Below are positions 14,534 through 17,810 of a stretch of DNA of 64,000 bases, one piece after another. How positions within the stretch are numbered: position 1 is the stretch's first letter; each line of letters begins with the position of its first letter. The position numbers were made by a program, and so were the translations under genes. Source of the DNA: an uncultured delta proteobacterium (GTDB lineage Bacteria; Desulfobacterota; Binatia; UBA9968); the NCBI GenBank assembly GCA_963771465.1, contig CAVYTU010000015.1:768001-832000 (forward strand), given 5' to 3'. A model generated the notes under the pieces. It was not told the origin of the DNA, ran no database searches, and worked only from the letters and a program-made list of their open reading frames with translations.

Positions 14534-15502
14534 ATGTCTACACGAACGCTTCTGCCAGTGGTTATTCTCACTTTTCTGTTTTCTAGCGAAGCGCGAGCAC
14601 AAACGACCGCTCCGGAAAAAGTGGTCGTCAGTTATCCGAGCAAGTCGATCACCAACTTTCCGATCCTGGAAACCGGTCAAAGAAGAGGTTTCTATCAGAA
14701 AGAAAACTTGAGCGTGAACCTCGTCTACATGCGCGGCGGTATCGATATTAAGGCGCTGCTCACCGGCGACGCTGACTTTGGCACGGGCAGCACGACGGCG
14801 GTCACAGCGTTTGTTGCTGGCGCGCCGTTGCGCGTGATCATGAGCATGAATTCCTTCGTCGACCAGGCACTCTATGCCCAACCGAAGTATCGGAACCTCG
14901 CCCAACTCAAGGGTCAGTCCATCGGTTCGCTCAATCCCGGCGGTTTGGTCGACACCCTACTTAGAAAAATCATCGCGCAAAACGGCCTCTCACCCGAGCG
15001 CGATTTCATTATTCTCAATATGGGCGGCACGCCCGAACGTTATGCCGCTTTGAAGTCGGGAACTCTCGCCGCATCGATGCTCAGTGCCCCGCATAGCTTG
15101 CGCGCCGAAAAAGACGGCTTTACGCGCATCGCCGTCACGCGGGATTATGTCGACGTGCCCGGAACGGCCTTCGTCGTCCACGCCGACAAGATCAAAAAAC
15201 AACCGCAAATGGTCAAACGATTCTTGCGCGCTTCGTTGCGCGCGATGAACTACATTCGCGAGAACCGGGCGGACACGACGCAGATGATCGTGCGCGAATT
15301 TGGCATGGATCAAGAAATCGCCGGGCTCGCTTACAAACAATTGCTCGAATTACTGAGCGCCGACGGCAAGAATCGCGTTGAAGGTTATCAGCTGCTAGTT
15401 GACTACGCCCGCGCCGCGCAAAAAATCGACCGGCCGATCCACGCCGCGCAGATGATTGACGAAACTTTGCTCGATGAGATGATGCGGGAAGGCGCTCGAT
15501 AA
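14534..15502 (+). CDS. ABC substrate-binding protein, NMT1/SsuA-like
   Basis: Signal peptide MSTRTLLPVVILTFLFSSEARA; GFYQKENLSV, ALLTGDADF, QLKGQSIG; RBS GAGGAG. Confidence 0.85.
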   Translation: MSTRTLLPVVILTFLFSSEARAQTTAPEKVVVSYPSKSITNFPILETGQRRGFYQKENLSVNLVYMRGGIDIKALLTGDADFGTGSTTAVTAFVAGAPLRVIMSMNSFVDQALYAQPKYRNLAQLKGQSIGSLNPGGLVDTLLRKIIAQNGLSPERDFIILNMGGTPERYAALKSGTLAASMLSAPHSLRAEKDGFTRIAVTRDYVDVPGTAFVVHADKIKKQPQMVKRFLRASLRAMNYIRENRADTTQMIVREFGMDQEIAGLAYKQLLELLSADGKNRVEGYQLLVDYARAAQKIDRPIHAAQMIDETLLDEMMREGAR

Positions 15503-15594
15503 AGAAACGAGACAGATAGAGAAATCCGGCGGGAAGAGGCGATCTCCATGGCAAATCTATCGACCGACCGTGCAACTTCTGTTAGTCTTGCGAC

Positions 15595-16035
15595 GTGAAC
15601 TGGCAAGCTAATCTTCTTTCGACCACTGAGCAAATTCGCGACCTGATCAATCACAGCAAACGTATCGCTGTCCTCGGCATCAAGACCGACGCGCAGTCCG
15701 ACCAGCCGTCGGTTTATGTGCCGCAGTACATGCAGCGCGCAGGCTACGAAATCATCCCGGTGCCGGTTTACTATCCGGATGCGACGATGATTCTTGGCGA
15801 GAAAGTTTTTCGCAGGCTTGCTGATATTCCAGGCGACATCGACATGGTCGACGTCTTCCGCCGACCGCCGGACATTAACGCTCACGTCGAAGATATTTTG
15901 GCGAAGCAGCCCACATCAGTTTGGTTTCAGTCAGGCATCCGCAATGATAGCGCGGCCGAGATATTCGCCAAGGCGGGAATCAAAGTCGTGCAAGACCGTT
16001 GACTGATGGTCGACCACCGGCGGTTCGCCGGTTAG
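15595..16035 (+). CDS. CoA-binding protein (YccU/COG1832 family); predicted selenoprotein with UGA 16000-16002 at the conserved Cys
   Basis: RIAVLGIK, YMQRAGYEIIPV, IDMVDVFRR, VWFQSGIRN, AGIKVVQDR-UGA-LMVDHRRFAG-TAG. Confidence 0.85.
16016..16032 (+). promoter_or_regulatory. Putative SECIS element of the CoA-binding gene
   Basis: ACCGGCG-GTT-CGCCGGT perfect 7-bp stem with GU-initial loop, 13 nt after the UGA. Confidence 0.7.
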
Positions 16036-16059
16036 ATGCCATTTAAAATTCCGTGTTCG

Positions 16060-16923
16060 CTACGCCGCCAATTTCTGCGCGTGGAGTTGTTTGGCGATGA
16101 ACGTTTTGATCTGTTCGTAAGCGCGCTCGGTCTGCGGTCCCGGCTTAGCGACCCACCGGTGCTCACTGCCCTTGAATACCTCGAACTCGCAGTCACCGCC
16201 TGCTTCTCGATAGGTAGCGACAAAACGCTCTTGCACGGCGGGCAACACGTTGTCATCTAACTCACCTTGGAGAATATACATCGGCGGCATTGAGACCTTC
16301 TCACCGCGCTCGAGGATTTTCTGTGGGTTGCCTTCGTGAATGCTCTCCCACGGGTTGAAGTAAGTCTTGCTGTTCTGAATCATTTCCGCCCACTGCTTGC
16401 GCTCCGCCTGCTGGTAGCGCGCGAACGGGTCGCTCACTGGCGAGCGCGCCACGACATAGGGCAACGTTGCATCGATTTTGGGCGCTTCCGCCAAAACATG
16501 CGCGTTATAGCGGGGATCATGCGGCCGCAGCGCAACGAGTTCGATCTCGTGGCCGCCGCTCGAGCTTCCCAGTGCCGCGACGGTGGCCGGATCACCGTTC
16601 CATTCCCGCGCCTTCGCTTTGAGCCAACGAACGCCGTAGTTTGCATCTTGCACCGAAGCCGGATAAGGCGCTTCAGGCGCGCGTGTCAAGTCGATGGCGA
16701 CGACGAGCAGGCCGCTGCGCGCCAAACTTTCGTCCATCGGCTGATTGGCGGTTCGGTCTTGATTATTCCAAGCGCCGCCGTGGAGGTCGAGCAATGTCGG
16801 GAACGGCCCGCCACCCTGCGGCTGATAAATCCGCGCCATCAACTGCCGAGTGGGGGTTTTGCGAAACTCGATATCCCAAGTTTTGATCTCGAATTTGTTT
16901 GCAGGATTATAAGTTGTCGCCAT
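16060..16923 (-). CDS. Alpha/beta hydrolase (HSL-like esterase)
   Basis: LHGGAW oxyanion motif, GSSSGG nucleophile elbow, ILQGELDD, GSEH; RBS GGAGG. Confidence 0.88.
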   Translation of the reverse strand: MATTYNPANKFEIKTWDIEFRKTPTRQLMARIYQPQGGGPFPTLLDLHGGAWNNQDRTANQPMDESLARSGLLVVAIDLTRAPEAPYPASVQDANYGVRWLKAKAREWNGDPATVAALGSSSGGHEIELVALRPHDPRYNAHVLAEAPKIDATLPYVVARSPVSDPFARYQQAERKQWAEMIQNSKTYFNPWESIHEGNPQKILERGEKVSMPPMYILQGELDDNVLPAVQERFVATYREAGGDCEFEVFKGSEHRWVAKPGPQTERAYEQIKTFIAKQLHAQKLAA

Positions 16924-17069
16924 GTTTGCTCCCTCCTTAGTTCTGCTAGCCAGAAGAGCGGGCTTCAAACCTGCCCTTTGTTACATTGCCAAAATATTCT
17001 TTGCGCTCTTTGCGATTAAATTCCGCTTCCGGCTTCTCTTGCTTCGTGCCTTGTGGTTAATTCTCTAAC

Positions 17070-17642
17070 TCACGGCATTGCGATCACCTCGCCGACCTTC
17101 CAAATATAAAGCGTGCGCGACTCGGCGTAGTCCGAGGTTCCGTCGGTCGGCGGGCCGACATTTTCGATGCGCGTCGGCTTCCAGTCGTCGATGTCGAAGT
17201 CATGGGCAACGACGCGCGAGCCGGGTTTCAATTTTTGCAGCTTTGGCTTGAGCGCGTTGTTGAACCATTTAAACATATAGAGCGTCACCACTGTCGCTTC
17301 GGAAATATCCACCGTGAGACCGTCCTGGGCGCGAAACTCGACGAGATGACTCACGCCTTCCTTCTCTGCGTTTTCCCGCGCCTTGGCAACTAGCTCCGGA
17401 TTCAAATCGATGCCGACGCCCTTAATGCCGAATTTCTTCGCCGCCTCGATAACGATCCGACCGTCACCGCTCCCCATATCGTAAAGAATGTCGCCTTTCC
17501 TGATTTCCGCGACCTCGATCATCTTGTGCACCACATGCATCGGCGACGGCACGAAAGGAATCGAGTCTTGCGCCAAACTCGCCCGACTCGCCGTCACCAG
17601 GAAGCCAACAACTATAAAGAATTTAGCAACGCTCCTGATCAT
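17070..17642 (-). CDS. Class I SAM-dependent methyltransferase with N-terminal signal-like peptide
   Basis: IPFVPSP, LYDMGSGDGRIVI, GVGIDLN, ATVVTLYM, LKPGSRVVAHDF. Confidence 0.88.
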   Translation of the reverse strand: MIRSVAKFFIVVGFLVTASRASLAQDSIPFVPSPMHVVHKMIEVAEIRKGDILYDMGSGDGRIVIEAAKKFGIKGVGIDLNPELVAKARENAEKEGVSHLVEFRAQDGLTVDISEATVVTLYMFKWFNNALKPKLQKLKPGSRVVAHDFDIDDWKPTRIENVGPPTDGTSDYAESRTLYIWKVGEVIAMP

Positions 17643-17810
17643 GTATTCCTCCAGGTCTATTTTTTCGCGCGCCCCCCAAGGACGGCATTTTATGCCGAGC
17701 CTGCCGCGACTTGTCAATGGCAAAGCATGCTTTCAAAGAATCCTGGACTGGGCAAACTCTTTGGGGTGTGGTAGAGGAGCCGAAGACAAGATCGGACGGG
17801 AGCAATTGCG

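Follow-up and report, generated by a model that had tools for sequence, protein, structure and literature searches.

The DNA analysed here, referred to below as the window, is a stretch of 64,000 nucleotides (nt) from an uncultured delta proteobacterium (GTDB lineage Bacteria; Desulfobacterota; Binatia; UBA9968), corresponding to positions 768,001 to 832,000 of contig CAVYTU010000015.1 in assembly GCA_963771465.1. At 15595-16035 it carries a gene for a small coenzyme A (CoA)-binding protein of the PF13380/COG1832 family, in which an in-frame TGA stands where the family has its one invariant cysteine, and which we consider very probably a genuine selenoprotein gene, with selenocysteine (Sec) replacing that Cys. 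The features of the locus, including a putative selenocysteine insertion sequence (SECIS) hairpin, are collected in Table 1.

Table 1. Features of the putative selenoprotein gene, in coordinates of the window.
Feature	Position	Strand	Basis
Selenoprotein gene (predicted), 146 codons plus TAG, PF13380/COG1832 CoA-binding protein	15595..16035	+	Sequence, Pfam, PDB, AlphaFold2 model
In-frame TGA, predicted Sec residue 136, replacing the invariant Cys of the DRC motif	16000..16002	+	Alignment with TGC/TGT forms
Predicted coding tail after the UGA, LMVDHRRFAG; residues 137-144 form the C-terminal helix	16003..16032	+	Tail conservation, PDB homologues, model
Putative SECIS hairpin: 5′ arm 16016-16022, GUU triloop 16023-16025, 3′ arm 16026-16032	16016..16032	+	Bacterial SECIS constraints, conservation
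Predicted true stop TAG, abutting the 3′ arm of the hairpin	16033..16035	+	Sequence, translation

From a GTG start, open reading frame (ORF) calling under translation table 11 ends after KVVQDR and yields 135 amino acids, whereas reading the TGA of codon 136 as Sec (U) yields 146 amino acids with the C-terminus RULMVDHRRFAG (GTC GTG CAA GAC CGT TGA CTG ATG GTC GAC CAC CGG CGG TTC GCC GGT TAG). The longer product is the better family member: against Pfam PF13380 (CoA_binding_2; gathering score 22.8) it scores 114.5 bits over profile positions 1-115 of 116, compared with 101.5 bits over positions 1-109 for the cut-off product, a gain of 13 bits and six profile positions. Matches in the PDB cover residues 12-144 and are led by 1iuk (T. 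thermophilus TT1466; E = 3.4e-27), followed by 2d59 (P. horikoshii PH1109) and 2duw (K. pneumoniae); each of these has Cys in a DRC or NRC motif at the TGA position, and the alignment runs on through the tail. Escherichia coli YccU (b0965) shares 33% identity (E = 2e-23), and its Cys falls at position 136. This position is Cys in 22 of 22 diverse homologue rows (33-60% identity, YccU included) and in all 34 rows of a second alignment, A1, where it is one of 13 invariant columns. The DRC-motif Cys that is invariant in the family is here replaced by a TGA codon, or by Sec if the codon is recoded; the read-through protein has Cys at no position, and residue 136 is its sole Cys-type residue. No model of NCBIfam release 20 matched the protein at E ≤ 0.01. 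Judged by these alignments, the gene encodes a complete protein of the YccU/YneT/TT1466 family, made up of one CoA-binding domain, that would, by homology, bind CoA, the cofactor contained in the solved TT1466/PH1109-type structures. The initial annotation had described an ORF stop at KVVQDR, a continuing frame R-U-LMVDHRRFAG and a hairpin 13 nt after the UGA, all of which the sequence reproduces exactly; its further statements that homology continues past the UGA, that the UGA falls on the conserved Cys and that the protein is of YccU type agree with the Pfam gain, the 22 homologue rows and the YccU alignment.

An AlphaFold2 model built from the 34-row alignment was of high confidence (predicted local distance difference test, pLDDT, 96.3; predicted template modelling score, pTM, 0.91), and its best Foldseek matches were 1iul, 1iuk and 2d59 (TMq 0.86-0.87), with TMq 0.86, TMt 0.94 and a root-mean-square deviation of 1.4 Å for 1iul. 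Weaker matches (TMq 0.60-0.64) were the CoA-binding domains of ADP-forming acyl-CoA synthetases, PatZ and succinyl-CoA synthetase alpha. In the model, residue 136 comes after a strand (130-132) and caps the N-terminus of the last helix (137-144), a location that lowers the pKa of a Cys- or Sec-type residue. According to the model, a truncated product of 135 amino acids would be without the last helix of the fold.

The TGA is shared with relatives. The gene is carried by 70 of 123 genomes of the same order (E ≤ 1e-20), and codon 136 is TGA in 28 of these, in two separate clades, and TGC or TGT in all others. The TGA forms comprise 19 of 20 genomes of the window's genus, all four from a sister genus, and 5 of 19 from a genus that belongs to another family. 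The pairing of Cys with UGA and the conservation of post-UGA sequence, which the initial annotation had put forward as a comparison among homologues, are both seen: across 45 genome-derived genes TGA and TGC/TGT occupy one column, the tail LMV[DE]HR... is retained in all 28 Sec genomes as well as in the Cys forms, and every relative examined has an in-frame stop 27-69 nt past codon 136. One further genome, G101, was discarded as a TGA form; its TGA is the terminal stop and its codon 136 is TGT. In a sample of 401 genomes of the phylum, 121 had the gene, with TGA in the window's genome only, and in a 401-genome sample of the Acidobacteriota-titled phylum of locus L063 the gene occurred in 147, with an in-frame stop in none. 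The counts include unpublished genomes, namely G005 (Sec, row L036), G085 and G088 (Cys, order tally) and G550 and G678 (among the 147 matches); no conclusion rests solely on any of these five.

The close relatives bear record titles such as 'Candidatus Binatia bacterium', 'Candidatus Binatus sp.' and 'Deltaproteobacteria bacterium'. A scan of metagenomes for the pattern DR-TGA-LMV(D/E)H returned at least 120 contigs, and among the matches listed 115 had upstream homology. These include a TGA group of 54-64% identity with tails LMVDHRRLRR or LMVDHRQLCR, for which a 98%-identical NCBI protein, cut at 136 amino acids, is titled 'Methylomirabilota bacterium'; the record labels thus place the predicted Sec form in two phyla or more. 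There is also a Cys form, P0002, that shares 94% identity with the window protein. In databases, 106 of the best 120 relatives end ...DR and are named 'CoA-binding protein'.

Some members of the collection are irregular. In the TGA genome G019 (L148) the orthologue is frameshifted near residue 90 and lies in two pieces, the second with the TGA, and in G026 (L147) the match is likewise in two pieces; these split copies are pseudogenes or assembly errors. Among metagenome sequences, L207, a Sec form standing alone on its long branch (64% identity), has the hairpin ACCGCC-GGUU-GGCGGU and may point to another lineage in which Sec is used. Codon 140 (16012-16014) shows a pattern of its own: it encodes Asp (GAY) in 20 of 20 genome-derived Sec forms of the window's clade and Glu in 13 of the 14 closest database Cys forms, with Asp in both forms of the Methylomirabilota-like clade; over all rows the counts are 106 Asp and 6 Glu for Sec, and 27 Asp and 26 Glu for Cys.

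Downstream of the TGA lies a perfect hairpin (ACCGGCG/GTT/CGCCGGT) that begins 13 nt past the codon and ends at the stop codon, with a GUU loop, a 7-bp stem, a UGA-to-loop distance of 20 nt and a folding energy of -11.1 kcal/mol. According to the legend of Fig. 2 in a 2026 review (PMC13188914), the constraints on a bacterial SECIS (bSECIS) are an apical loop of 3-9 nt with G then U first, a spacing of 16-37 nt, a stem of at least 4 bp and a minimum free energy (MFE) of at most -7.5. Scanning with our own script, a program distinct from bSECISearch that takes the constraints of the bSECISearch model and considers uninterrupted stems, we found hairpins within these limits in 27 of 28 unique Sec regions versus 6 of 89 unique Cys regions, a control set biased by the origin of 71 of its 89 regions in a scan whose patterns included QDRCLMVD.

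Synonymous variation gives a second view of the element. When 20 full-length Sec genes from the window's clade are compared in pairs, their synonymous difference averages 0.000 at codons 141-145, the sole zero window among 135 five-codon windows, compared with 0.469 over the 129 upstream codons, of which two show none; 11 Cys forms belonging to the same family differ by 0.62 at codons 141-143. In addition, 97 unique 42-nt Sec regions resolve into 27 hairpin types, every one with G among the first two loop nucleotides (loops GUU, GUA, GUC, GUG, GCUC, GGUC, GCUG, GCUU, GGUU, GGC and others). Stem changes on both sides convert G-C to C-G in four types and G-C to A-U in two, and G.U pairs occur in four. 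These pairs were counted by a script anchored on the best hairpin of each of the 97 sequences; in the ungapped MAFFT alignment of the same regions (A2) the 3′ arms of variants with 4-nt loops are out of register. The A-U stem variant alters two amino acids jointly (R to Q and R to C), and in the Methylomirabilota group, where the loop is longer by one base, the 3′ arm CGCCGG is held in another register and encodes LRR rather than FAG. The entity conserved here in Sec forms is the RNA hairpin and not the peptide. In the synonymous comparison, selection is evident on both the peptide and the hairpin.

The 15-nt core of the hairpin has exactly two copies in the 6.9-Mb genome. The second, on contig C16 at about 168273-168287 (-), lies antisense in an unrelated ORF of 359 amino acids (167543-168619, +) and was set aside as a chance occurrence; a TGA stands 9 nt upstream of it, in a frame without a coding look.

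The genome is equipped to read UGA as Sec. It is a draft (6.9 Mb in 19 contigs, 55.7% G+C, contamination 6.29%), in which selA (614 bits), selB (358.6 bits) and selD (376.3 bits) lie adjacent head to tail at C14:197319-201637, and tRNA-Sec (selC) scores 76.7 bits, all four above curated cut-offs. The selD gene itself has an in-frame TGA in a G-U-x-x-K context, and its SECIS, an 8-bp stem 33 nt past the UGA, has the same GUU triloop as the window hairpin. The formate dehydrogenase alpha subunit gene (fdhA; 1258.7 bits) also contains one TGA. As a separate observation, one in-frame TGA apiece was seen in fdhA, in a second molybdopterin oxidoreductase and in an EF-Tu-like ORF (C12:482-3466, +; C16:85180-86043, -; C14:13177-14205, -), and the latter two may be further selenoproteins or mere ORF joins.

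Sequences from other projects provide a check on the codon itself. The stretch was found wholly or partly in 20 listed runs from 14 studies of soil, rhizosphere and freshwater-sediment metagenomes, and four runs were compared as contigs. One DNA contig (X2) matches 15834-16031 with no difference and extends 29 letters past the codon, just under the bridging rule applied. Another, from an RNA library (X15, 15922-16344), represents a relative; it bridges the codon and reads TGA, with ten listed differences from the window in 15957-15999 and none in 16000-16077. A third run (X4) has almost no coverage at 15966-16113. The initial annotation had pointed to reads at 16000-16002, to the selA, selB, selC and selD genes and to a bacterial SECIS as places where its reading could be examined, and on all three counts that reading held: TGA is seen in contigs of independent runs, the four genes are above their cut-offs, and the hairpin lies within the bSECIS constraints, with RNA-level selection in Sec forms only and with compensatory changes.

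Several observations nevertheless weigh against Sec insertion at this codon. Folding of a 66-nt segment gives z = -0.67, a value that 47 of 200 shuffled sequences equal or better; the stability of the hairpin is ordinary for G+C-rich sequence, and its thermodynamics are no better than chance. An Rfam scan of 15500-16200 (E ≤ 10) returned no SECIS family; its two hits, one miRNA and one lncRNA, are ascribed to chance. Hairpins are weakened in some TGA forms, through G.U variants (L030, L179 and L245), a broken 3′ arm (L250, -3.7 kcal/mol), a deletion (L214) or stems of 5 bp (L256 and L261), and one TGA form, L280, has unrelated sequence downstream; L250, L214, L256 and L261 could be decaying genes, sequencing errors or the mark of a tolerant SelB. 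The remaining RNA-library contig (X16, 15974-16165), identical to the window, starts just 26 letters before the codon, and the RNA-library contigs as a whole suggest transcription of the gene while falling short of proof, RNA libraries being able to hold DNA and a convergent gene starting at 16060. Set against the thermodynamics, the comparative evidence for the predicted hairpin is far beyond chance.

The lone TGC genome of the window's genus, G028 (L027), has the loop CUU instead of GUU and Glu instead of Asp140, and at 92% completeness it gives no match for selA and scores below cut-off for selD (62 versus 125 bits), selB (188 versus 242) and tRNA-Sec (46.2 versus 47), although, with selA, selB and selD adjacent in the window's genome, one absent contig could account for three of these four. 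All five other Sec-form congeners tested have selA. It looks as though the Sec trait was lost in G028 and the TGA then became TGC. Cells capable of Sec insertion can also retain the Cys form, since selA is present in the Cys-form genomes G093, G056 and G060. When 45 genome-derived proteins are placed in a careful tree that excludes column 136, Sec forms occupy two supported places, a clade of 21 rows (20 Sec plus G028; support 99/95) and a clade of five rows (95/90) that sits inside a group of Cys forms from the other family (100/100); at least three label changes are needed, of which at least two are forced by starred branches. A quick tree of 165 rows, in which Sec rows were over-sampled by design and the bad row L189 was kept, has 14 label changes, at least seven of them forced by starred branches, and, as its three main Sec-bearing clades, groups of 87 rows (the window's; 79 Sec, 8 Cys), 40 rows (Methylomirabilota-like; 26 Sec, 14 Cys) and five rows. 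Given Sec forms in separate clades and a Cys form as close as 94% identity, Cys and Sec have, on the phylogenetic evidence, replaced each other repeatedly at this position.

The use of Sec is almost confined to sites at which a Cys performs redox or nucleophilic chemistry. The replacement of a single invariant Cys by Sec several times is strong evidence that the residue does chemistry, and position 136 would be catalytic or redox active. SelB and tRNA-Sec very probably recode UGA codon 136 to Sec, directed by the hairpin 13 nt downstream. For the chemistry we propose that Sec136 and the thiol of the CoA in the pocket would join in a reversible selenenylsulfide (Se-S) link. The protein would then be a one-residue catalyst or carrier for CoA-thiol/disulfide exchange, for example in the removal or transfer of CoA from CoAlated thiols, and Sec would offer faster exchange than Cys with less proneness to over-oxidation. 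We lean towards this mechanism, without strong conviction. A biochemical hint comes from Bacillus subtilis spores, in which YneT, a putative CoA-binding protein of 135 amino acids, is reported in the passages of PMC8127865 concerning it to carry a CoA-modified Cys126, in the peptide TVIMDLC126IK. Other points count against the redox part. The equation of Cys126 with position 136 is judged from the motif [VI][VI]xDxC and the distance to the C-terminus (9 versus 10 residues) only; the read-through protein has no UxxC or CxxU motif and no second redox Cys; a genome profile search for CoA-disulfide reductase gave a best score of 91 bits against a cut-off of 578.8; and the loci compared show no conserved operon partner and no evident functional link.

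The main competitor at the level of chemistry is acyl transfer, in which Sec would be an acyl-carrying nucleophile that forms a seleno-ester from acetyl- or acyl-CoA and passes the group on. It draws on the RefSeq name of E. coli yccU (L153; NC_000913.3, 1027946-1028359), 'putative HspQ acetyl donor', whose Cys aligns at position 136 and whose name, in hinting at acyl transfer, also speaks against disulfide exchange, on the fold shared with the CoA-binding domains of acyl-CoA synthetases, PatZ and succinyl-CoA synthetase alpha, and on the missing resolving Cys. Our literature search for YccU together with HspQ found no paper that ties the two. Moreover, nearly all prokaryotic selenoproteins in the tabulated catalogue are redox proteins (PMC13188914), and the sole experimental datum on this Cys, in the part of PMC8127865 that concerns YneT, is a CoA disulfide and not an acyl adduct. 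We regard acyl transfer as an unlikely account, though one with a real share of the probability. In the E. coli genome yccU adjoins hspQ in convergent orientation.

The alternatives that deny Sec altogether fare much worse. Were the TGA a real stop, the gene would encode a protein of 135 residues and the hairpin would be a terminator or some other 3′ element; all public gene calls do end there (106 of the best 120 ending ...DR) and the hairpin does abut the gene end. Yet the open downstream frame encodes the family's tail in all 28 genomes, truncation would cost the protein its one invariant Cys together with a helix seen in the solved structures, the hairpin is without a T run and received no call in a promoter/terminator scan, its loop G is held in 27 of 27 types, and loss of the Sec genes coincides with TGA becoming TGC. 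We consider termination here highly improbable. To the same slight degree we credit read-through by insertion of Cys, Trp or another near-cognate residue, or a local change of code, for which nothing specific speaks: TGA terminates other genes at these loci (for example those of L024, L029 and L203), the SECIS-like hairpin is conserved with a loop as in selD, and the Sec machinery in the genome is complete. A sequencing or assembly error or recent pseudogene, suggested by the draft state of the genome (19 contigs, contamination 6.29%) and the frameshifted copy in G019, is refuted for practical purposes by TGA in 28 genomes, at least 115 metagenome contigs and contigs of independent runs, together with selection on peptide and hairpin. 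Overall, a selenoprotein gene is the best explanation of the locus and is held with high confidence, the proposed Se-S mechanism being its more tentative part.

A wider interpretation is that COG1832 proteins (YccU, YneT and TT1466) are unrecognised redox catalysts dedicated to CoA, for which 'CoA-redoxin' might serve as a name, with the thiol of bound CoA as partner of the single Cys or Sec, in the de-CoAlation of proteins or the turnover of CoA persulfides and disulfides. We offer this tentatively and think it rather doubtful. If it were true, the fact that Cys has repeatedly given way to Sec in aerobic phyla of the soil (Binatia-type bacteria and Methylomirabilota) would mark the residue as rate-limiting in vivo.

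Around the gene, a convergent alpha/beta hydrolase (BD-FAE/Abhydrolase_3; 16060-16968, -) and a methyltransferase (17070-17723, -) are syntenic in most loci of the family. A paralogue of xanthine-dehydrogenase-type molybdoproteins is frequent upstream, and NMT1-type binding proteins are also among the neighbours.

The initial annotation could not say whether the family had been catalogued as a selenoprotein. Table 1 of the May 2026 review, which gives 119 prokaryotic selenoprotein families and subfamilies with domain identifiers, contains no PF13380 or CoA-binding protein, a comparison confined to the table and separate from the supplements (PMC13188914). The table takes in the families of Haft & Tolstoy 2025. 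The table passages of a 2022 review are likewise without the family, and no such term appears in the main texts of deep-Sep, BSepDB, Olavius, ISME 2016, Genome Biology 2006 or the Haft 2022 preprint; matches in the GOS paper were merely to 'coastal'. Literature searches gave nothing relevant by title among the matches listed for selenoproteins with CoA-binding, no paper for Binatia with selenocysteine, nothing on the family for TT1466, PH1109, COG1832 or PF13380, and only the 2026 review for selenoproteins and deep-Sep in groundwater and for selenoproteins in Rokubacteria, Methylomirabilota or Binatota. As cited in the corresponding passage of that review, Deng et al. 2026 predicted 63 selenoprotein genes in a Methylomirabilota metagenome-assembled genome (PMC13188914), and these candidates may include the present protein. 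The selenoprotein family is probably uncatalogued, with the supplementary lists of deep-Sep, BSepDB and Deng et al. as places that may contain it.

The mechanism of Sec insertion is itself the ordinary bacterial one, and the value of the locus lies less in recoding than in the light it throws on an obscure and widespread CoA-binding family. The candidate would add a selenoprotein family outside the 119 of the 2026 table, and public records of two abundant soil lineages would be missing an invariant active residue and the last helix. Taken with the CoA disulfide described for YneT in the relevant part of PMC8127865, the Sec switch turns 'unknown function' into a testable hypothesis, in which bound CoA would take part in Se-S or S-S exchange. 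The locus also makes a clean teaching case, in which an RNA signal would override the protein code and one stem is kept in two reading registers.

Comparison with known systems places the protein more precisely. The CoA-binding domains of succinyl-CoA synthetase alpha, acyl-CoA synthetases and PatZ have the same Rossmann-like fold but are parts of large enzymes. The titles of PDB entries 2nu6 and 2nu9 describe mutants of Cys123-alpha in E. coli succinyl-CoA synthetase, a residue that lies near the CoA thiol; hhalign of A1 against E. coli SucD, run to compare this Cys with residue 136, gave a probability of 0.5 and no alignment, and a literature search on Cys123 found unrelated papers only. CoA-disulfide reductases of the Cys type act on the CoA thiol with one active-site Cys; these enzymes differ in their unrelated fold, their use of FAD and NAD(P)H and their length of about 440 residues. 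The tabulated 2026 catalogue lists a Sec-containing family of this reductase (PMC13188914), which makes Sec-S-CoA chemistry biologically plausible. At the RNA level, the window hairpin resembles the bSECISearch consensus in its site 3′ of the UGA, loop, spacing, stem and MFE. Counting from the first base of the UGA, its loop has G at position 24 and U at position 25, which resembles the SECIS of E. coli fdhF with its G23 and U24. The window hairpin departs from both in that the family's stem is short (6-8 bp), perfect and without a bulged U, and the hairpin ends at the stop codon. The closest likeness is to the COG1832/PF13380 proteins themselves (1iuk/1iul, 2d59/2d5a, 2duw, YccU and YneT), with which the window protein shares family, length, fold, the DRC-type motif and the tail helix, and from whose Cys-containing members it is set apart by a predicted Sec at the invariant Cys and an RNA hairpin inside its last ten codons.

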